A stretch of DNA of 64,000 bases from Pleurocapsa sp. (GCA_050330395.1 JBHJNW010000088.1:5787-69786), one strand, 5' to 3'. Counted from the stretch's first letter, positions 12,951 to 45,559 are shown. Translations and numbers: made by a program. The notes: generated by a model from the sequence alone, not told the origin.

Positions 12951-15680
12951 ATGCAGCCTACCGATCAAAGTAAGTTTACTGAACAAGCCTGGGATGCGAT
13001 CGTTAAATCTCAAGAAGTTGCCAAACTATTTCAGAATCAGAACTTAGAGGTAGAGCATTTAATCTTAGCGGCCTTAGAACAGGAGGGTTTGGCACTAGCT
13101 ATTTTAGATAAAGCCAATATTGATTCTCTGCGCTTCAAGCAGCAGTTAGAGATGTTCACCAAACGTCAGCCGAGGATTGGTTCGTCTCAACTATATTTAG
13201 GGCCTAGCTTAGATCGTATGCTAGATCGTGCAGAGGACTGTCGCTCAAGCTGGGGAGATAACTTTATCTCCATCGAACATATTCTGATGGGGTTTGCCGA
13301 AGACGCTCGGATTGGGAAGAAATCCCTTCGTAGTTTTAATGTTGACCCGCAAGATTTAGAAAAAGCCATCAGGTCAATCCGCGGTTCGCAGAAGGTAACC
13401 AAACAGAATCAAGAAGAACAGTATCAGGCATTAGAAAAGTATGGGCGAGATCTGACCGAACAGGCAACGGCGGGTAAATTAGACCCCGTGATCGGTCGCG
13501 ATGAAGAGATCCGTCGAGTAATTCAGGTGCTGTCTCGTCGTTCTAAAAACAACCCCGTGTTGATTGGTGAGCCTGGAGTTGGCAAAACGGCGATCGCCGA
13601 AGGATTAGCGCAACGCATTGTCAATGGCGATGTGCCTGAGTCTCTGAAAAACCGTCAGTTGATTTCTCTTGATATGGGTAGCCTAATTGCAGGAGCAAAA
13701 TATCGCGGAGAATTTGAAGAACGTTTACGGGCAGTTTTAAAAGAAGTAACCGAATCTAGCGGTCAAATAGTTTTATTTATTGATGAAGTCCATACCGTGG
13801 TCGGTGCAGGAGCAAAAGAAGGCTCTGGCTCAATGGACGCGGGCAACTTACTCAAGCCAATGCTCGCCCGCGGAGAATTGCGCTGTATCGGCGCGACAAC
13901 TCTCGATGAATATCGCAAAAATATTGAAAAAGATCCAGCCTTAGAAAGGCGTTTCCAGCAGGTGTACGTCAAGCAGCCTACCGTAGAAGATACTATTTCT
14001 ATTTTACGTGGCCTCAAAGAAAGATACGAGGTGCATCATGGCGTAACTATTACTGACTCGGCACTAGTAGCAGCAGCAACCCTGTCTCAACGCTACATTA
14101 CCGATCGCTTTTTACCTGATAAAGCGATCGATTTGATCGACGAGGCAGCCGCTAAGTTAAAAATGGAGATTACTTCTAAACCCAGCGAATTAGAAGACAT
14201 CGATCGCCGTATTATGCAGCTAGAGATGGAAAAAGTCTCTTTAACTGGCGAAAGTCAACGTCCAGGAATGCTTGCCGTAGATAGGGCAGCTAAAGAAAGA
14301 TTAAGCAAAATCAAAGCAGAAATTGAAACTTTAAAAGGTAAACAGGGAGGATTATCGGCTCAATGGCAATCAGAAAAGAGCTTATTAGACGAAATCAACG
14401 CTCTTAAAGAAGAAGAAGAAAAAGCACGACTCCAGTTAGATCAGGCTGAACGAGCTTTTGACCATGAAAAAGCTGCACAGTTAAAATATGGCAAGCTGGA
14501 AACTTTGCAGAGAGATTTGGAAGCCAAAGAAGCTCAACTAATTGATCTTCAATCCGAGGGAACAACTCTACTGAGAGAACAAGTAGGGGAATCTGATATC
14601 GCTGAAATTGTCGCTAACTGGACAGGAGTACCAATTAATCGTCTCCTAGAATCTGAAAAACAAAAGCTACTTCAACTAGAAGGACATCTCCATCAACGAG
14701 TTATCGGACAACAAGAGCCTGTGGCAGCAGTAGCAGCAGCTATACGTATGGCAAGAGCAGGCATGAGCGATCCTGGTCGACCTATCGGTTCATTTCTATT
14801 TATGGGACCGACAGGGGTTGGTAAAACTGAGTTAGCCAGAGCTCTAGCAGCTTTTCTCTTTGATAGCGAAGATGCAATGGTACGAATCGATATGTCCGAG
14901 TACATGGAGAAACATGCCGTATCTCGTTTAGTGGGTGCGCCTCCAGGATATATTGGCTTTGAGGAAGGAGGACAGTTAACCGAAGCGGTGCGCCGTCGTC
15001 CATACTGCGTGGTGTTATTGGATGAAGTAGAAAAAGCCCACAAGGATGTGTTTAATATTTTGCTTCAGGTGCTGGATGATGGCAGAATTACTGACTCTCA
15101 AGGGCGAGTAGTAGACTTTCGCAACGCCATTATTGTCATGACTAGCAATATTGGTAGTGAAAATATTCTTAACGTTAAGGGAGAAGACCAGGATTACGAA
15201 GAAATTTATAAGCAGGTAAACAAGGCTCTTCGGGGTCACTTCCGCCCTGAATTTCTCAACCGTATTGACGATCTAATTATCTTCCATGGCTTGAAAAAAG
15301 AAGAATTAAAAGAGATTGTTACTATTCAAATTCAAGGTATTCAACGTTTATTAAGTGAGCAAAAAATTACGATTGAACTTTCTCCAGCCGCTCAAGATCG
15401 TATTGTCACCATCGGCTACGATCCTGCTTATGGTGCGCGTCCGCTAAAACGGGCAATTAGACGGGAACTTCAAAATCCCATTGCCACGATGATTTTAGAT
15501 AATACGTTCACCGCAGGAGATAAAATTGTTGTAGATTGCGTGGGAGAAAAATTAACCTTTGACAAAGAAACTCCCCCAATCGTCATAGAAACAGCCCCGC
15601 CAGACCAAAACAAAAACTCGACCCAGAAAGCTGTTGCTAACAAAAAACAATTAACAGAAGTTGTTTCATCAGAAACATAA
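12951..15680 (+). CDS. clpB: ATP-dependent chaperone ClpB
   Basis: 909 aa. Clp N-domain, two AAA+ modules (Walker A GEPGVGKT and GPTGVGKT), a long coiled-coil middle domain, and a sensor motif GARPLKR. Confidence 0.95.
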
Positions 15681-30205: not shown

Positions 30206-31648
30206 CTAACCACGCTTCCAGATTGTTACATTTCCAGGTTTATCGATCAAAGTAATACCTTGAGCTTGTAATTCATCCCGAAGGCGATCGCTTTGGGCAT
30301 AATTTTTATTCTTTCTCGCTTCGTTGCGCTGCTGCACTAAAACCTCAATTTCCGAGTCTTTTAATCCTCCAGTATCAGTGCTAATTCTTTCTGGCTTGGC
30401 TTCAAAACCCAAAATTTTGGCTAATTTAGTCAAAGTTCGCCATTGTTGTTCTAATTCTCTAGCTTCAGTCGAAGTCTTTCCTTCATGGGTCATAATATGC
30501 CCTTCTTTGCTCAAGTTTTTCGCAATCTCAAACAGCACAGCCAAACCACCAGCAAAATTGAAGTCATCGTCTACAGCTAATTTAAACTTATTTACTAATA
30601 CTTCATCTTGCAAATCGGCATGAGCAAAACCTAATTGTTGCCCATACTGATGACCAAACAACAATCCTGCTTTCAAAGTTGACCAGCTACTGGTAGCGGT
30701 AATTAAGGCTTCTTCTGTAAAATCTACAGGCTTGCGATACTGAGTTTGCAAAATGAACAACCGTACCGCCATAGACTCATATTTATCCAGCAGTTCACGG
30801 ATGGTAATAAAGTTGCCTAGTGACTTAGACATCTTTTTCCCTTCCACGATAATCATGCCGTTATGCAGCCAATAATTAGCCAGGGGTTTACCTGTTACCG
30901 CCTCCGATTGAGCAATCTCATTTTCATGATGAGGAAAAGTTAAATCGCTACCACCGACATGGATATCAATTGTTTCGCCCAGCATTTCGCGCACCATTGC
31001 CGAACATTCTATATGCCAGCCAGGGCGACCATTACCCCAAGGAGACTCCCAAGAAGGTTCATCTGCTTTGGCTGCTTTCCAAAGAGCAAAATCAAAAGGA
31101 TAATGTTTTTTACTACCCTCCGAATCTTCTACACCGACTCTACCGCTAGCACCCGCCTGCATATCATCAAGTTTCCTACCCGATAACTTGCCGTATTCAG
31201 GAAATTTTTGCACCGCATAGTAAACATCCCCCTGCGTAGGGTAAGCAAAACCTTTTTGTTCTAATTCATAAACCAGACGTTTAATTCCATCTAGGGTATG
31301 TGTAGCGCGGGGATAAGCATCTGCCTTGCCTACTCCCAACCTGGCCATATCTTCAAAATATGCTGCAATAAATTTCTCGGCAACCTCCTCCATTGATGTT
31401 CCTTCTTGCCTAGCGCGATTGAGAATTTTGTCGTCAATATCAGTAAAGTTCTGAATATAATTTACTTCGTAGCCAGACCATTGCAAGTAGCGACGCACAA
31501 CATCCCAAACCAAACAAGTTCTCGCATGACCAAGATGGCAATAATCATAGACAGTGATGCCACAGCAATACATCCGCACCTTATTTTCTTCAATGGTCTG
31601 AAACGTTGATTTGCTACGGGTAAGGGTATTGTATACGGTTAAAGTCAT
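30206..31648 (-). CDS. cysS: Cysteine-tRNA ligase
   Basis: 480 aa with class I signatures HLGHAR (HIGH) and KMSKS. Confidence 0.95.
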
Positions 31649-36410: not shown

Positions 36411-37427
36411 TTAGAGGTTGGTAGTCAATCTAGCTTTTCTGAGCATAAACTGCAAAAGCGTTTCTTCTCTGGAAATAATGTCAGCTTGACTTTCCATTCC
36501 CAATTGCAGCGAACAGTGATTTTTTTCTCTACCAAAAATATTGCTATTGGGAGTAATCAAAACTTCATAAAAAGAGGTCTGTTTTTGGACTTGAGAACTA
36601 TTATCCGTCTGTTGAGTTGGTGGTTTACTGGTGTCTTTAGCAATTTGACGAACCTTACCTTGAAGAATGCCGTAGTCAGGATAGGGACAAGCAGAAACTC
36701 GCATCTGTACTTCTTGTCCTACCTTTAACTTGCCAATATCTTGAGCTAATACTGCTGCTTTCATTTCGCTCTGAGAATTTTCGGGAATGATTCGGGTGAT
36801 TTCTTCTCCAGGCTGTACGGTTTGTCCTTGATTACGTAAACCAAGCTGAAAAATTGTCCCTGCGGCGGTGGCAGCTATCTTAGTTTGGCTAAGCTCTTTG
36901 TTGACCTGATTTAGCTCTTCTGTATCTTGCTCTAGCTGCTTGTCGATCTCGATGCGTTGTTGAATTAAAGCTTCTGTTTCTCGATTTAAACCTGCTATAG
37001 TGGCTCGACCAGATTTTTTGGCTTGTTCGATGCGCTGTAAAGATATATCAATCTCTGCGGTCGAGGGATTGAGTGCAGCAACTGCTCGTTGCTGTCTGGC
37101 TTTGGCAGCTTCTAGCTCTTGCTCTTGTCGGTTGACTTCTAACTCAGCTTCTGCCAGTTGATCTTTACCAATTGCTCCAGCTTGCGCTACCGATTTATAG
37201 CGGTTATATTTCGCTCTAGCGGCGTTTAAAGTTGCTTCAACTGCTTTAACTTGAGCTTGGGATTCTGCTACTTGAGTAGTAACCTCAGTTTTTTTATCTT
37301 GATAGTTGCGCTGACTGCCTGCCAGTTCTGAGTTGGCTGCTGCAACCTCGGATTGATTGCGCTCGGTTTCGGCAATCATTTGACTGGCTAGACTAGCAAT
37401 TTGAGCGTTGAGTTGTGTTAACTGCAA
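36411..37427 (-). CDS. HlyD-family periplasmic adaptor, C-terminal fragment (coiled coil plus beta-barrel). It continues the upstream ORF after a frameshift.
   Basis: Long Q/A/E-rich coiled coils, then barrel-like segments (GTIFQLGLRNQGQTVQPGEEITRIIP; VSACPYPDYGILQGKV). The listed start is a TTG inside an open frame that extends upstream to 37512. Confidence 0.75.
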   Translation of the reverse strand: MQLTQLNAQIASLASQMIAETERNQSEVAAANSELAGSQRNYQDKKTEVTTQVAESQAQVKAVEATLNAARAKYNRYKSVAQAGAIGKDQLAEAELEVNRQEQELEAAKARQQRAVAALNPSTAEIDISLQRIEQAKKSGRATIAGLNRETEALIQQRIEIDKQLEQDTEELNQVNKELSQTKIAATAAGTIFQLGLRNQGQTVQPGEEITRIIPENSQSEMKAAVLAQDIGKLKVGQEVQMRVSACPYPDYGILQGKVRQIAKDTSKPPTQQTDNSSQVQKQTSFYEVLITPNSNIFGREKNHCSLQLGMESQADIISREETLLQFMLRKARLTTNL

Positions 37428-37512
37428 TCTTTGTTGCTCTATGCCTGTTTTGAGTTGGTTTTGCTTGGTTTGAAAGCGAGAACGATCAATAATGGCGATC
37501 GCTTGTCCTTGC

Positions 37513-38298
37513 TTAACGGTTTTGAGCCTCTTTGACCAAGATCTGGGAAATTTGGCCTTCCACTGCTGCTTGAACCAGATGTAATTCTGTTACTGGTCGA
37601 ACGATTGCACTGGCTCTGACAACTGTTTTGTATTTAAAGACAGAGGCAGCAGGAATAGCTAAGACAATCAGCATAACTACTGAAATTCCTCCCTTAGTAA
37701 GCCATTGACTTACAGGAGGCAATAAATCATCGGCTTGGTTTGATGCTAGTTGCTGAGAGTCTGATTGACGAATGCTGGAATAGTTGTCTAATGATGCTGT
37801 TACTTGGGGACTGTTTATTTTAGAAGAACGATCAACATTTGGCGCTAGCTGAATTTTTTTGAATAATTGAGAACCAAAATGAGAGTAGCCTTTGCCAACT
37901 GAGTGAATCGCCGTCACCAAATCTTCTGTGGGTGTGGTTTTAAGGATATAGCCATCCGCTCCCGCAGCGATTATTTTTTGAACATATTCTTGATGTTCGT
38001 AGCTACTGAGGATCAAAATTTTACAGTTAGGAAAACGCTGGGAAATAACCTTGGTTGCCTCAATACCGTTCATTTTAGGCATTTCGATGTCAATTAGTAC
38101 CACATCTGGCTTTAAAGACTCTACCTGAGCGATCGCTGTCTCGCCGTCGCTGGCAAGGCCCACAATTTGTAAATCGACTCTCGAAGACAACATTTGCTGC
38201 AATTTATGCTGGACAAATTTTTGGTCGTCAACTAGCAAAATTTTGATGACATCAATAGCAGGAACTGGGAGTGGGAAATTATTTTGATTGGTATACAT
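37513..38298 (-). CDS. Response-regulator receiver domain fused to the TM anchor and first strands of an HlyD adaptor (N-terminal fragment)
   Basis: REC motifs ILLVDDQ, DVVLIDIEMP (phospho-acceptor Asp context), ILILSS and DGYILK. These are followed by a linker, a TM (GISVVMLIVLAIPAASVF) and the HlyD-type start VRPVTELHLVQAAVEGQISQILVKE. The ORF stops 3 codons after a 4-A run. Confidence 0.75.
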   Translation of the reverse strand: MYTNQNNFPLPVPAIDVIKILLVDDQKFVQHKLQQMLSSRVDLQIVGLASDGETAIAQVESLKPDVVLIDIEMPKMNGIEATKVISQRFPNCKILILSSYEHQEYVQKIIAAGADGYILKTTPTEDLVTAIHSVGKGYSHFGSQLFKKIQLAPNVDRSSKINSPQVTASLDNYSSIRQSDSQQLASNQADDLLPPVSQWLTKGGISVVMLIVLAIPAASVFKYKTVVRASAIVRPVTELHLVQAAVEGQISQILVKEAQNR

Positions 38299-38331: not shown

Positions 38332-40539
38332 TTAATTCGGCTTAAACGGTAAATCGGCGATCGCTCTGCCGTTACGATTACCTCGAGAAAAAGAGCCATC
38401 GAGGAAATCTAAATGTTCTCCCGATATCTCGCGTAATTCGTCTGGAGTCCCCTGGATTTTTAGTTTTCCTTGGTCTAACATCACAATCCAATCAGCGCGC
38501 TCGATTACTTTGGGACGATGGCTAATCATAATCGTCGTTTTATTTTGGCGATGACATAGCAATTGTTCTAGAACCTGATGTTCGCTCACAGGGTCTAATG
38601 CGCCTGTAGATTCATCTAAGATCAACACTGGTGGATTGTTAACTATCGCTCTGGCGATCGCTAATCGCTGTTTTTGTCCCCCCGATAGATTTGCTCCAAA
38701 TTCACCTAAAACGGTTTGATATTTATCGGGTAATTTACTAATAAATTCATCCGCACCAGCAATTTTACAAGCTTGGAGGATTTGTTCAAAGGTGATTAGT
38801 GGATAACCCAAGGTGAAATTTTCAATAATCGAACGACTCCAAAAATGCGCTTCTTGCGGAATTAGTACTACCTGCTGTCGCCAACAGTCTAAATCGATGT
38901 CAGATTGGTTATACAAACCGATGCTAAGATTGCCAGATTGAGTCGAATAAAGATTGGCAATTAATTTAGATAGGGTGCTTTTACCGCATCCAGATTTACC
39001 AGCTAGAGCAGTTACTTTTCCCCCAGGAATATTTAAAGAGAAATCCTGGAGCAATTCAACTCTACCAGGATAGCTAAAGCCGATATTTTCGCAAACGATA
39101 TCTGCATTGCCAGCCAGTTGAACTACCGGCTTGTTTTTTTCTAGGTTGCTTTCTGGAGTATGATCGATAACTTCTGTAAGACGCTGAGTAGCAGTTTTTA
39201 CACGAGTCCATTCATCGACAAATTGAATTGTCGTACTAATCAAACCCAAAAAATTAGCAGTCATGCTATTGAAAGCTAACAGCTGTCCGATACTTAAGCG
39301 ATCGCTAAAAACCAGGGTGCTACCATACCAAAGCAGTGTCACACTGCCGATACTCGAAACTAACTTAGAAAAGGTGTAGTTAAAAATTCCAATTTGAGCA
39401 GTACGGTAAGTTTGATTGGCAAAGCTACCGAAGCGTACCTGCAATTCTGACCATAATTGGGGTGCAGCAGCCGTAGTCTTAAAAGTTAAAGCACCTTTAA
39501 AGGTTTCGACTAAAACCCCTTGATTTTCTGAATCTAAAACCATAACTCGACGGACTTTTTGTTGCAGCGTCGGTAAAAAGATTACTGTCGAGATGGTCAT
39601 GCAAACAGCAATGGCTATTGCCACCAAGGTGAGGGATACACTGTAAAACAGCATAAATCCCAAAGAAATTATAGCGATGAAAAACTGACTGGGTAAGCTA
39701 ATTACTACCTGCGCTACCAACTGATTAATTTCTTGCACATCTTCTAGACGGCTGACTATTTCGCCGCTACGACGAGCTTCAAAGTAGGTTAGGGGCAAAC
39801 GTAATAGCGTTCTAGCAAATTCTAAAATTAGTCCCAACTCTAGTTTTTGGGCGAAATGAGTGATCAGGTTGTATTCAACCAATTCCAGCCACGCACTAAC
39901 TAGATTCATCGCGATCACAGCGATCGCTAATCCCGTTAATAATTGTCTGTCGCCTCGAATTAATACATCATCAGTCAAAATTTGAATTAAAAAAGGATAA
40001 GCCAGAGAGAGTAAACCAATTACCTGAGCGCAAATGGAGGCTTCAATTAACGTACCTCGATAAAGCCATAGCTGATTAAAAAATCTGCTCAAACCTTGAC
40101 CGTTTTTTTCATCTTGCTGGTGATAAAAATGTATTGGATCTGGTTCTAACAGCAGCATGATCAAATCAGTCCAACTTTCGACTAATTCTGTACGAGAAAT
40201 ATAACGAATTCCGCTTGCTGGATCGGCAATAATATATTTGCCACGACGTTGACCATGTAACACCACCCAGTGATAACCTTTCCAGTGAATAATGGCTGGC
40301 AAAGAAGCAGATTTAAGATTATCAATAATATTTGGGGAAGCCCGCACTGGACGAGTATTCAAACCCAGAGAAGCTGCACCTCTTCTCAATCCCAGCATCG
40401 TTGTTCCTAGTTGCCCCGTACCCACGGCTTCGCGAATGCGATTTAAAGTTAAGGTACGTCCATAATGCTGGCAAATCGTTCCTAAACAAGCCGCACCACA
40501 GTCTGTTTCACTATGCTGTAAAACAACTGAATATTTCAC
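38332..40539 (-). CDS. Bacteriocin-type ABC exporter with an N-terminal C39 peptidase domain (double-glycine leader processing)
   Basis: 735 aa. C39 catalytic Cys context QHSETDCGAACLG and His context GYHWVVLHG, six-TM ABC membrane domain, Walker A GKSGCGKST, signature LSGGQKQR, Walker B VLILDE. Confidence 0.9.
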   Translation of the reverse strand: MKYSVVLQHSETDCGAACLGTICQHYGRTLTLNRIREAVGTGQLGTTMLGLRRGAASLGLNTRPVRASPNIIDNLKSASLPAIIHWKGYHWVVLHGQRRGKYIIADPASGIRYISRTELVESWTDLIMLLLEPDPIHFYHQQDEKNGQGLSRFFNQLWLYRGTLIEASICAQVIGLLSLAYPFLIQILTDDVLIRGDRQLLTGLAIAVIAMNLVSAWLELVEYNLITHFAQKLELGLILEFARTLLRLPLTYFEARRSGEIVSRLEDVQEINQLVAQVVISLPSQFFIAIISLGFMLFYSVSLTLVAIAIAVCMTISTVIFLPTLQQKVRRVMVLDSENQGVLVETFKGALTFKTTAAAPQLWSELQVRFGSFANQTYRTAQIGIFNYTFSKLVSSIGSVTLLWYGSTLVFSDRLSIGQLLAFNSMTANFLGLISTTIQFVDEWTRVKTATQRLTEVIDHTPESNLEKNKPVVQLAGNADIVCENIGFSYPGRVELLQDFSLNIPGGKVTALAGKSGCGKSTLSKLIANLYSTQSGNLSIGLYNQSDIDLDCWRQQVVLIPQEAHFWSRSIIENFTLGYPLITFEQILQACKIAGADEFISKLPDKYQTVLGEFGANLSGGQKQRLAIARAIVNNPPVLILDESTGALDPVSEHQVLEQLLCHRQNKTTIMISHRPKVIERADWIVMLDQGKLKIQGTPDELREISGEHLDFLDGSFSRGNRNGRAIADLPFKPN

Positions 40540-40749: not shown

Positions 40750-40787
40750 ATAAGGTCGCATCATCGTCAACTTGAATGCGACCTTAT
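40750..40787 (-). terminator. Hairpin between the precursor peptide gene and the exporter gene, a candidate partial terminator/attenuator
   Basis: 12-bp perfect stem ATAAGGTCGCAT / ATGCGACCTTAT with a 14-nt loop, located 73 nt downstream of the peptide stop codon. On the - strand it is followed by TTATGTAGATG. Confidence 0.55.
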
Positions 40788-40859
40788 ATACCTAGGGCAG
40801 TTAGTTTGGTAGTTTTCTCAAGCTATCTATAACTAGCTGCTCTTTCAGTAGCAATCTAC

Positions 40860-41045
40860 TTAATGGTGACCTTTGCCACGACCTTTGCCACCTTTTTCAT
40901 CGTAGCCATAACCGTAGCTATAACCATAATAACCATAGCCATAACCGTAGCCATAACCATCGCCACCAGAGATTTGTTCCATTTCAGAATCTACTAACTC
41001 GGTAAATTCTACTGATTGCTGGGAAAGATTTTTTTCGTTTAACAT
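40860..41045 (-). CDS. Double-glycine-leader precursor peptide with a Gly/Tyr-repeat core and a basic His-terminated tail
   Basis: MLNEKNLSQQSVEFTELVDSEMEQISGG | DGYGYGYGYGYYGYSYGYGYDEKGGKGRGKGHH. The leader has hydrophobic residues at -4 (I), -7 (M), -12 (L) and -15 (F), Glu at -8 and GG at -2/-1. The gene lies directly upstream of a C39-ABC exporter. Confidence 0.8.
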   Translation of the reverse strand: MLNEKNLSQQSVEFTELVDSEMEQISGGDGYGYGYGYGYYGYSYGYGYDEKGGKGRGKGHH

Positions 41046-41908
41046 GAGCCTATTTCCGTTAATAAAGTTGTCTGTTTACAAAGTCGCTTGGATTTAATTC
41101 AAACTTACTTCCAACCCAATGCCAATAATTAAGATTGAGCCAGAGTATTGAATAAAAGAACTGTAGCCTTTTCCCAAGACGCTTTTAACTCCACCAGAAC
41201 CAAAAATTTGAAGCACCGTGTCGTTACCAGAGGAATATCTTCTAGATTGGTAAGATTTAGCACCAATTAGCTTGATCTTTCTATTCTGAAGAAAATAAAA
41301 TTATTCCAATTTAGGTTGGCTTTACTGCCTAACATAGTGTTTCTGATAATTGGCATTAACATATTCTTTTGAGAATATTGTCAGTGGAGAAACATCAGTA
41401 AAAAAAATCAAAACTTTTTGAATTTTTTACTGAGTTAAACATACATGATTTTGCTAAGCATGACAATAATATTTGGTTAAAAAAAGGTTAATATAATAAC
41501 ACCAATAGAATTGAAATATATAATCATCAGTGCTTATAGCAATTGTAAAAAAGTTTTAAATTTATGTCTGTTTAATTGTTTAACTTGAATAAGATGTTGT
41601 GTAGTATACATTTCATTGTAATGATTATAGATAATATAAATAAACCAAATTAATGTAATATAAACAACAAATAATTACAATTTTTAAAATAGATTAAAGA
41701 GCTAATTGTCAAAAATTATTTGAAAAACATGGTAATTTTAAACAGAAGATTCTTCAGCTTTTGGCAGAATAATCGTGTTTTTCTATCTAGCCTGGAAACT
41801 AATTGAGCCAAGGTAAAATTGAAATGGCTAGGTAGGGAAGCGATAGCGCGTCAGATTCGATTAACCGCGATATACGGATTTAATGATCTGGCGATTTATA
41901 CGCCTTAT

Positions 41909-44722: not shown

Positions 44723-45559
44723 ATGACAACAGTTCTAATCGTTGATGACTCAAGCAGCATTAGAGAGTTTTTGAAAATTAACTTATCTAGTGAACTAAAT
44801 ATAAAGATCATTGGGTTGGCAGATAATGGAGAGAGAGCGCTCTCTTTGGTTGAAGAACATCAACCAGACGTGATTTTGATGGATATCGATATGCCTGGCC
44901 AAATCAACGGCATACAAGCAACTGAAAAAATTGTTCAGCGTTTTCCTGAGATCAAAGTTCTACTCCTAACCAGTCAAGATGATAGAGAACAGCTCAATCT
45001 AGCTCTCAAAGCAGGTTCTCGAGGCTATATTCTTAAAAATACTAGCGTCAAAGATATTGCCAACATTATTCGCTTAGCGGAGAAAGGCTTTTTTCAAATT
45101 GGTCCTATACTAGGCAACTGGGATGGTTCGCTACACAGCAATATGCAATCAAATAATGGGACTAAAGCAATAGTCCAAAATTCCCGTAAAGTTGGAGCTA
45201 TCGTCCAGCAAGACACAGAGTCTAATAACAACTATAGCCAAGCATCTGAAATGAATTATGTCTTATCTAATTTGACATCTGGACTATTTCAATTGCAAGA
45301 AACAATTAAATCTCAGGAAGATACGATTGTTAATTTAACTAATCAATACTCCCTGGTTCAACAAGAAATTAGAGCTAAGCTAAACAAAGATAAGCGTACT
45401 TTTAATCCATCGAGAGTGCCTGGTTATAGTTACAAAATCGCCTCCAAAAGTCGTACTCTAAGAAGGCAACATCTTTTATTTATCAGTAGTTTTTTCTTGG
45501 GAGTATTTACTGTGCTTGTTTTAATGTTGGTAATTATGACTTTAGGAACAGTAGTTTAG
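44723..45559 (+). CDS. Response-regulator receiver protein with a coiled coil and a C-terminal TM anchor (no DNA-binding output)
   Basis: REC motifs VLIVDDS, DVILMDIDMP, VLLLTS and RGYILK. These are followed by a low-complexity linker, a coiled coil (LFQLQETIKSQEDTIVNLTNQYSLVQQEI) and a terminal TM (LLFISSFFLGVFTVLVLMLVIMTL). Confidence 0.75.
   Translation: MTTVLIVDDSSSIREFLKINLSSELNIKIIGLADNGERALSLVEEHQPDVILMDIDMPGQINGIQATEKIVQRFPEIKVLLLTSQDDREQLNLALKAGSRGYILKNTSVKDIANIIRLAEKGFFQIGPILGNWDGSLHSNMQSNNGTKAIVQNSRKVGAIVQQDTESNNNYSQASEMNYVLSNLTSGLFQLQETIKSQEDTIVNLTNQYSLVQQEIRAKLNKDKRTFNPSRVPGYSYKIASKSRTLRRQHLLFISSFFLGVFTVLVLMLVIMTLGTVV

Follow-up and report, generated by a model that had tools for sequence, protein, structure and literature searches.

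The window analysed here, a stretch of 64,000 nucleotides (nt) from a Pleurocapsa sp. genome (GCA_050330395.1, JBHJNW010000088.1:5787-69786), carries a small gene for a 61-amino-acid (aa) precursor with a double-glycine (GG) leader, followed by genes for a peptidase-containing ATP-binding cassette transporter (PCAT) and for a HlyD-type periplasmic adaptor fused to a receiver domain (REC-HlyD). The reading that we favour, with somewhat more confidence than doubt, is that this gene encodes a precursor of a small cyanobacterial GG-leader family with low-complexity cores, and that the mature peptide would be a self-associating, polysaccharide-binding component of the matrix, the sheath or an adhesive. 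That the open reading frame (ORF) is a real small gene and a cargo of the PCAT is very probable.

The precursor consists of the leader MLNEKNLSQQSVEFTELVDSEMEQISGG, the core DGYGYGYGYGYYGYSYGYGYDEKGGKGRGKGHH and a stop codon. The original prediction had placed a Gly/Tyr-rich mature peptide of 33 residues at positions 40860-40961, and translation confirmed that this interval holds exactly the 33 core codons and the stop codon. The composition claimed for it was also correct: 13 Gly and 10 Tyr were counted among the 33 residues, with no Cys and no hydrophobic stretch (grand average of hydropathicity -1.58), and the computed isoelectric point, net charge and mass are 8.2, about +1 and 3653 Da, respectively. 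Among 26,295 stop-free segments of 33 residues in the six frames of the 64 kb, this locus alone reaches a G+Y content of at least 14, with a maximum of 25 of 33. The strand and frame are fixed by the leader, since differences between homologous leaders fall in the third codon position 319 times, versus 164 and 128 times in the other two. Two overlapping frames, 40856-40966 (-) and 40863-40997 (+), were rejected as by-products of the repeat, as only the reported frame continues into the conserved leader; a true frame on the opposite strand, which the original prediction had named as a possible objection, is thereby ruled out. The motif (A)GGAAA(T/C)A is kept ahead of the ATG in an alignment of five loci. 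The identical 61-aa protein is present on the NCBI metagenome-assembled genome (MAG) GCA_964557795.1 and on one Logan contig. Between the window and its nearest relative, locus L006, nucleotide identity is 94% in the leader and 80-84% in the flanks, but 54% in the core, which is effectively unalignable. A Pfam search gave no match for the precursor peptide, and the family members score below the cut-off of every Pfam and NCBIfam model.

The leader ends with F(-15)TEL(-12)VDSEM(-7)EQI(-4)SGG, followed by D as the first core residue, and thus has hydrophobic residues, read directly, at -4 (I), -7 (M), -12 (L) and -15 (F). In LahT150, structure and mutagenesis have demonstrated that leader positions -4, -7 and -12 dock into a hydrophobic groove of the C39 peptidase and are needed for cleavage (PMC6363468); the precursor has both the GG motif and hydrophobic residues at these three positions. 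The 15-position model TIGR01847 (bacteriocin_sig) scores the leader at 13.9 bits (E 0.067), marginally below its cut-off of 15.7. The same strand carries the PCAT gene some 320 nt further downstream. Pfam places Peptidase_C39 at residues 2-130 of its product (6.9e-35), together with ABC_membrane and ABC_tran, and the protein matches PCAT1 (4ry2) over the full length (E 1e-106). Cys14 stands in the catalytic column, where the inactive 7n87 has Ala, and the His and Asp align too, so that the triad is intact. The pairing of a GG leader with a C39 exporter, as first proposed, is borne out. PCAT orthologues that carry the same leader family are 82-91% identical to the window protein, which is the sole member of its 90% cluster. 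The 526 relatives found in 185k genomes, the best of them 64-69% identical, serve other cargo, namely a different Gly-rich GG family in Nostoc, NHLP/Nif11-type precursors, microviridin and a LanM lanthipeptide; the PCATs of the Gly-rich GG peptides, microviridin and the lanthipeptide are 60-69% identical.

Table 1. Features of the precursor and exporter locus in the window.
Feature	Position	Strand	Basis or remark
Precursor gene, 61 aa and stop codon	40860..41045	-	ORF, translation; leader conserved in ~30 homologues
GG leader (residues 1-28; cleavage predicted behind G28)	40962..41045	-	C39 recognition pattern
Core (predicted mature 33-mer): (GY)n repeat and K/R/G tail ending in HH	40863..40961	-	
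Ribosome-binding-site-like GGAAA	41053..41057	-	8-12 nt 5' of the ATG; putative
12-nt tandem repeat (GGT TAT GGC TAC type) encoding the GY run	40903..40965	.	Tandem Repeats Finder: period 12, 5.5 copies, 79% matches
Perfect 12-nt x2 repeat encoding GKGR/GKGH in the tail	40868..40891	.	Tandem Repeats Finder: 100% matches
Conserved stem-loop, arms AAGGUCGCAU / AUGCGACCUU	40750..40787	-	Between precursor and PCAT
PCAT: C39 peptidase, ABC membrane and ABC ATPase domains, 735 aa, short type	38332..40539	-	Pfam
REC-HlyD adaptor gene (receiver, transmembrane segment, HlyD periplasmic adaptor)	36411..38298	-	Split by +1 frameshift, A-run 37520-37523
Remnant of another, dissimilar GG-leader precursor, now a pseudogene	~41094..41362	-	Upstream of the 61-aa precursor

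The leader family comprises about 30 distinct proteins from public assemblies, with the consensus MSNEKNLxQQSVEFTELVDSEMEQISGG. An exhaustive profile search of 1.84 billion representative proteins gave only 8 matches and a search of a 90%-cluster database gave 27, while six-frame scans of the fetched loci added further members. A DNA pattern for EMEQISGG found 24 loci, only two of which hold true family members, the others having unrelated GG leaders; a scan of JGI metagenomes with the peptide alignment returned 600 pattern matches, none of which was confirmed. Most homologues have a different, conserved core, DKIIQIFNPYSFAAPYGFIGPGFG…Q8…GRGKKHGHYK, with the layout DK[FI]I(QI)FNPYSFAAPYGFIGPGFG, a Gly-rich stretch, Q6-9 and GGG(R/K)G(R/K)GKK(H)GHYK(H). 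The same core is found behind two divergent leaders (P0010 and P0029), which argues that the mature sequence itself is constrained. The canonical N-terminal core motif and the polyglutamine (polyQ) run are absent from the window core. Other members with low-complexity cores have DKPYSSGYDNYGGRGGYDNYGGYGGYDNYGGYGKGKGKGYY (P0007, locus L087), a G/S/Y-rich repeat (P0008, locus L089) or GFGKGGFDRGG repeats (L091b, P0027 and P0028).

Loci L099 and L100 each encode a G/Y-repeat precursor and a canonical precursor, followed by an intact PCAT and an intact REC-HlyD. The cores of the extra precursors are NGYGGGYGGGYGGDGYGG…GRKGRGYGWC in L099 (7327-7560) and NGYGGGHGGG(YGGG)x10YGCGCGKKH in L100 (7056-7298). 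Both loci are syntenic with the window (ABC-F 92% and PCAT 88% identical), and the three share flanking genes for a 153-aa protein, a protein with receiver and transmembrane segments (REC-TM), a glyoxalase and an APS kinase. Since G/Y cores occur in syntenic loci with intact exporters, they represent a genuine subtype and not an oddity of a decaying locus. The original prediction would have given way to a random low-complexity ORF if homologues had failed to conserve the repeat; among them, the combination of Gly with aromatic residues is kept, in several cases as a true G/Y repeat. The order precursor(s)-PCAT-REC-HlyD is kept in all loci long enough to judge (the window, L087, L091, L099, L100 and L101), and these are the only genes common to all of them. 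No modification gene is conserved across the family loci, and no conserved small membrane protein that could serve as an immunity factor was found in the window, L087, L091, L099 and L100; a 184-aa zinc-ribbon membrane protein encoded downstream in the window was rejected as an immunity candidate, having no counterpart in related loci. The C-terminal ends in the family are GHYK(H), GHY, GYY, GKKH, GWC and GGF, of which G-H-Y-K is the commonest. GHH is restricted to the window and L124, and the idea of a metal-binding His-His end as a family feature is ruled out by this lack of conservation.

The G/Y-rich composition of the core is due to tandem DNA repeats (Table 1) rather than to chance. It had been proposed from the alternation of synonymous codons along the GY units that selection acts on the protein repeat. 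The GGT/GGC alternation of the Gly codons is indeed present, but the inference does not follow from it, because a 12-nt unit spreading by slippage yields the same pattern, and alternation alone is no proof of selection. Better support for translation comes from the family-wide GGT/GGC bias. Although repeat units are non-independent observations, GGT or GGC accounts for 138 of the 152 Gly codons across nine family genes (59% in the long ORFs of the window) and for 67 of 68 in the G/Y cores of L099 and L100, while TAC is used for 41 of the 44 Tyr codons in G/Y cores other than that of the window, against a background preferring TAT (73%). This bias in Gly and Tyr codons looks like translational optimisation.

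The stem-loop between the precursor and PCAT genes (fold z-score -4.2) was found in all eight loci examined, the window and seven others, and has 13 pairs, two of them with compensatory changes. A scan for intrinsic terminators made no call, and since a strong U-tract is missing, the element is named here a stem-loop only; an Rfam search over 35-46 kb gave no match. We infer that it is probably a 3'-end or attenuator element. Its arms are conserved above the surrounding intergenic DNA while the loop is variable, which makes a recognition site conceivable, and the element might be recognised by a protein or an RNase instead of being a simple terminator.

The adaptor gene is interrupted in the window, where it forms two ORFs of 261 and 338 aa. 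Deletion of one A in silico restored a 628-aa adaptor that is 66-71% identical to intact 627-aa orthologues, and the extra A is evident in a DNA alignment with four orthologues; intact REC-HlyD orthologues in general have 619-627 aa. The frameshift likewise occurs in the Logan contig L002, although both frameshift-bearing assemblies may come from the same reads, and an error or a population variant is possible at this homopolymer site. The receiver domain matches Pfam with 97.8 bits; as read from its sequence, LLVDDQ holds the acidic pair, VVLIDIEMP the predicted phospho-acceptor Asp, ILILSS the Ser and YILK the Lys. REC-HlyD fusions form a cyanobacterial family with full-length matches from 74% down to about 29%, comprising about 70 clusters at 38% or above among the matches listed. 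Named members, from Pleurocapsa, Calothrix and MAGs, bear the plain labels "response regulator" or "HlyD family", and our literature search found no paper on the fusion. A divergent REC-HlyD of Calothrix sp. FACHB-1219 adjoins a PCAT and a GG peptide, whereas another member of the family is an orphan; the Calothrix peptide (L098, 4935-5135, minus strand) has an amphipathic cationic core, TFLLLGLLLKKKWLKWHPAPQPPVHKPYVPPHPHH, and ends in HH as well. A separate 278-aa protein of the window (44723-45559, plus strand) combines a receiver domain with a C-terminal membrane segment and has no output domain. It shares 42% identity with REC-HlyD in the receiver, and its syntenic counterparts in L099 and L100 are about 60% identical to it. 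This protein may be part of the same regulatory circuit.

The second precursor, of which the window retains a remnant, is intact in L006, where its leader ends with VDLKDGEAELISGG and its core begins with SYQSRKYSQGDDTVLQVFGPGG (core stretch SYQSRKYSQGDDTVLQVFGPGGVESVLGKGYGSFLQDSGSILIVEF); the L006 protein has a weak, sub-threshold match to the "CTB family bacteriocin" model NF038167. The window copy has a 1-nt deletion and its GG is gone, and the gene is disrupted in L004 and L005 also.

Several observations concern the surroundings of the family loci. A large serine recombinase (Resolvase/Recombinase/Zn_ribbon_recom) is encoded divergently upstream of the precursor in L087 (8303-9634, minus strand) and L088 (269-1612, minus strand), which hints that some copies of the system lie beside or on an excisable element. 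Genes for a glutaminyl-cyclase-like protein (Glu_cyclase_2) and a PmbA/TldD-family peptidase are located beyond the exporter in L099 (14093-16203) and L100 (14062-16211); they are absent from the window, which has instead the 184-aa zinc-ribbon membrane protein and ccmK. In Nostoc and relatives, a different short GG leader, M(E/Q)STLFTTLTANEEANLSGG, occurs about 1-1.5 kb upstream of the PCAT match (L009, L012, L013, L016-L018, L020, L034, L046, L060 and L084). Long, Gly-rich cores of low complexity come after it (GNGGAGGAGG… and K/P/T-rich stretches), often in tandem copies, suggesting that PCATs with cargo of this low-complexity kind are spread widely among filamentous cyanobacteria. As for the organism, the window is probably from a Pleurocapsa-like cyanobacterium (MAG GCA_964557795.1): Pleurocapsa sp. 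FMAR1, Waterburya sp. and a MAG of the Coleofasciculaceae are found in the 90%-identity clusters of the housekeeping proteins ClpB (12951-15680, plus strand) and CysS (30206-31648, minus strand).

The following course of events could be proposed for the system. The 61-aa precursor would be made from its own transcript, ended or attenuated at the conserved stem-loop. The C39 domain of the neighbouring PCAT would dock the leader helix through I-4, M-7, L-12 and F-15 and cut after Gly28, and the ABC part would export the 33-mer, which is likely to leave the cell unmodified, while the HlyD adaptor would bridge the pump to an outer-membrane channel encoded elsewhere. Because the adaptor carries a cytoplasmic receiver domain, export would probably be gated by phosphorylation. 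The G/Y-repeat type of core could be made and resized through slippage of the 12-nt repeat; the other recurring type in the family is the conserved core, in which an aromatic segment is joined to Gly-rich stretches, polyQ and a basic end. The Tyr-rich, beta-prone repeat may drive association, and the cationic K/R-Gly tail may bind anionic polymers.

The four roles named in the original prediction (an antimicrobial, a dityrosine-cross-linkable sheath or adhesive component, metal binding and signalling) are all drawn by analogy; that prediction passed over the different core conserved in most homologues, the receiver fusion and frameshift of the adaptor, and the pseudogene of the partner precursor. 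The matrix or adhesive role, taken by itself, is a tentative assignment, somewhat less likely than not. The window core has a low charge and no amphipathic or hydrophobic segment, no immunity gene accompanies it, the locus is stable at one chromosomal site, related loci co-encode two low-complexity partners, and export appears to be regulated. The organism is, moreover, probably related to Pleurocapsa and Waterburya, which are attached, sheathed cyanobacteria. The analogy itself is with EbfG1-4, GG-motif proteins exported by the PCAT PteB, which are needed for biofilm formation and of which EbfG1-3 form amyloid (PMC4997328, PMC9981879), and with PCAT-exported microcins, which can act as biofilm amyloids (PMC13188072). 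A bolder extension, which we regard as speculative and quite unlikely, is that the paired, eukaryote-like peptides (one a G/Y or G/F/charged repeat, the other of the aromatic-Gly-polyQ-RG/KG type) assemble outside the cell into a condensate, a hydrogel or an adhesive, which Tyr oxidation might harden. Phosphorylation of the receiver in a type I secretion adaptor would then toggle release, so that secretion of this phase-separating or amyloid-like material would be signal-gated.

Several points weigh against a matrix peptide at work in this genome. Expression, cleavage and export of the peptide are predicted from the DNA. The window core has no hydrophobic segment of the KIIQIF type, to which the canonical core owes its amyloid-prone look, and its Tyr codons are TAT in 7 of 10 cases, as in the background and unlike the TAC-using other G/Y cores, which fits relaxed selection here. 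Because related PCATs carry unrelated cargo, the transporter clade is no predictor of cargo function. Eukaryotic antimicrobial peptides, too, are known to be built from repeats of glycine, aromatic and basic residues. Finally, the adaptor frameshift and the partner pseudogene suggest that the export system is decaying in this genome, where export may no longer be efficient. A rival reading is that the gene is an evolutionary relic in this particular genome, with the export system being lost and the (GY)n core driven by slippage under relaxed selection without a current function. We consider this somewhat unlikely. It would account for the +1 frameshift of REC-HlyD in two assemblies, the upstream pseudogene, the loss of the canonical N-terminal motif and polyQ from the core, the background-like Tyr codon usage and the isolation of the PCAT in a one-member 90% cluster. 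However, the precursor ORF is intact, as are its canonical leader, the ribosome-binding-site-like motif and the hairpin, the PCAT retains its full length and its catalytic triad, G/Y-repeat cores occur in loci with intact exporters, and the frameshift lies in a homopolymer, in assemblies that may share reads, where it could be an error or a population variant.

The main rival to a matrix function is an unmodified glycine-rich antimicrobial, similar to class II microcins or bacteriocins and secreted by the PCAT against competitors, which would parallel in function the Gly/Tyr- or Gly/His-rich antimicrobial peptides of eukaryotes. Its composition resembles that of the eukaryotic glycine-rich antimicrobial peptides. 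The cores differ strongly between close relatives, like those of diversifying toxins, most of them are cationic (net +2.5 to +4.8), and the Calothrix REC-HlyD/PCAT locus has a clearly amphipathic cationic cargo. In addition, a GG leader, a PCAT and HlyD constitute the classical export set of microcins and bacteriocins, and the cyanobacterial ones have been catalogued as putative bacteriocin clusters (PMC3140520). On the other hand, the GG motif is no predictor of bacteriocin activity (PMC12267927), the five loci inspected for an immunity gene share none, the window core has a net charge of only about +1 with no hydrophobic or amphipathic segment, and the locus keeps its chromosomal position across related genomes and is not carried by a mobile element. 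Altogether, we consider an antimicrobial function unlikely. It is improbable that the precursor is modified post-translationally by an enzyme encoded elsewhere, through Tyr cyclophane cross-links of the triceptide type, 3,4-dihydroxyphenylalanine (DOPA) or dityrosine, and equally so that the active product differs on this account from the linear 33-mer. Known three-residue cyclophane enzymes use Tyr-x-Asp and Tyr-x-Arg (PMC11002830), Tyr-x-x triplets are abundant in the peptide, and family members weakly match TIGR04260 GrrA/OscA1 (E 0.78) and TIGR04495 XyeA (E 0.1-0.24). These scores are 10.3-12.8 bits, however, versus cut-offs of 31-33, the window peptide itself has no match, no ORF of at least 200 aa in the 64-kb window contains the CxxxCxxC motif of radical S-adenosylmethionine (SAM) enzymes, and no radical SAM, P450 or tyrosinase family appears in the Pfam tables of five related loci. 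A triceptide identity was rejected on the sub-cut-off scores and the lack of an adjacent radical SAM/SPASM maturase. Still less probable is that the secreted peptide signals or binds metal, as a quorum-type pheromone linked to the receiver or as a chelator acting through His-His and Tyr phenolates. PCAT-exported GG peptides include pheromones, the L100 leader has a weak match to the ComC family (E 0.034), the receiver domain is physically part of the exporter, and family members commonly have His close to the C-terminus. Nevertheless, low-complexity cores that vary in length and sequence among close relatives are poor specific ligands, no histidine kinase is encoded in the window locus or related loci, the HH end is confined to two members, and the core has no N-terminal Cu/Ni (x-x-His) motif.

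GG-leader peptides with PCATs are abundant in cyanobacteria, and to our knowledge almost none of them has a known function. EbfG is the one studied case, in which the peptides build a biofilm matrix rather than kill. Our literature search gave nothing relevant on bacterial Gly/Tyr-rich GG peptides. The leader family described here is a sharply defined, testable case among the cyanobacterial GG peptides. If its members assemble themselves into extracellular materials, they would be minimal equivalents, in bacteria, of the Tyr/Gly-rich proteins that form adhesives and condensates, and the REC-HlyD fusion would be a new means of regulating type I secretion. If they are antimicrobial, they would be the first bacterial cases of a glycine-rich design known from animals and plants. 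The window copy is of lesser value in this respect because the system looks partly inactivated.

With respect to known systems, the EbfG1-4/PteB/HlyD system of Synechococcus elongatus PCC 7942 has the same arrangement, with GG precursors directly upstream of a short-type C39 PCAT and HlyD and no modification enzyme (PMC4997328, PMC3140520, PMC9981879); its cargo also lacks homologues beyond its own lineage, and there are several precursors per locus. However, its mature peptides have no detectable sequence similarity to the window family, their size is 6-7 kDa, they lack tandem G/Y repeats, the EbfG adaptor is not described as REC-fused, and the biofilm role has been demonstrated for EbfG and is inferred for the window peptide. 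The EbfG/PteB cluster is included in the "group III" of cyanobacterial GG-peptide clusters, in which a PCAT of the short type and HlyD occur without tailoring enzymes (PMC3140520). The window locus has the same set, with a PCAT lacking the N-terminal extension that binds cyclic nucleotide monophosphates, although its adaptor is REC-fused and frameshifted. Class II microcins (MccV, MccE492 and MccAB1 of A. baumannii) are likewise ribosomal, smaller than 10 kDa and often Gly-rich, with a GG leader cut by a PCAT and export via the PCAT, a membrane fusion protein and TolC, and some of them self-assemble into biofilm-supporting amyloid (PMC13188072); they differ in their hydrophobic segments, in the immunity gene adjoining them and in their proven ability to kill, none of which was seen for the window peptide. 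The families catalogued by Wang, Fewer & Sivonen in 2011 and by Haft in 2010 (NHLP and Nif11-type) share the processing logic and the exporter class, and their cores have been described as varied, with an abundance of Gly, Cys, Ser and Thr (PMC3140520). In contrast, the window leader is a short family of its own, neither NHLP nor Nif11, with cores of two kinds, G/Y or G/F repeats poor in Cys and an aromatic-Gly-polyQ-basic module. The GrrA/OscA triceptide precursors are also cyanobacterial, with Gly-rich repeats containing aromatics and a weak sub-threshold similarity of the profile models, but the window system has no radical SAM/SPASM maturase and scores far under the cut-offs. Gly/aromatic-rich peptides of eukaryotes include the nematode NLP/caenacin peptides, shepherins, armadillidin, mussel foot proteins and FUS-like [G/S]Y[G/S] domains. 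The likeness is in composition only (Gly with Tyr/Phe repeats and K/R/H); with no homology, another kingdom and other secretion routes, these peptides offer only functional leads (antimicrobial action, adhesion and condensation). Thus, the general GG-peptide/PCAT system in cyanobacteria is already known, while the leader family, its G/Y-repeat and aromatic-Gly-polyQ-basic cores, and their consistent pairing with a receiver-fused adaptor are new.

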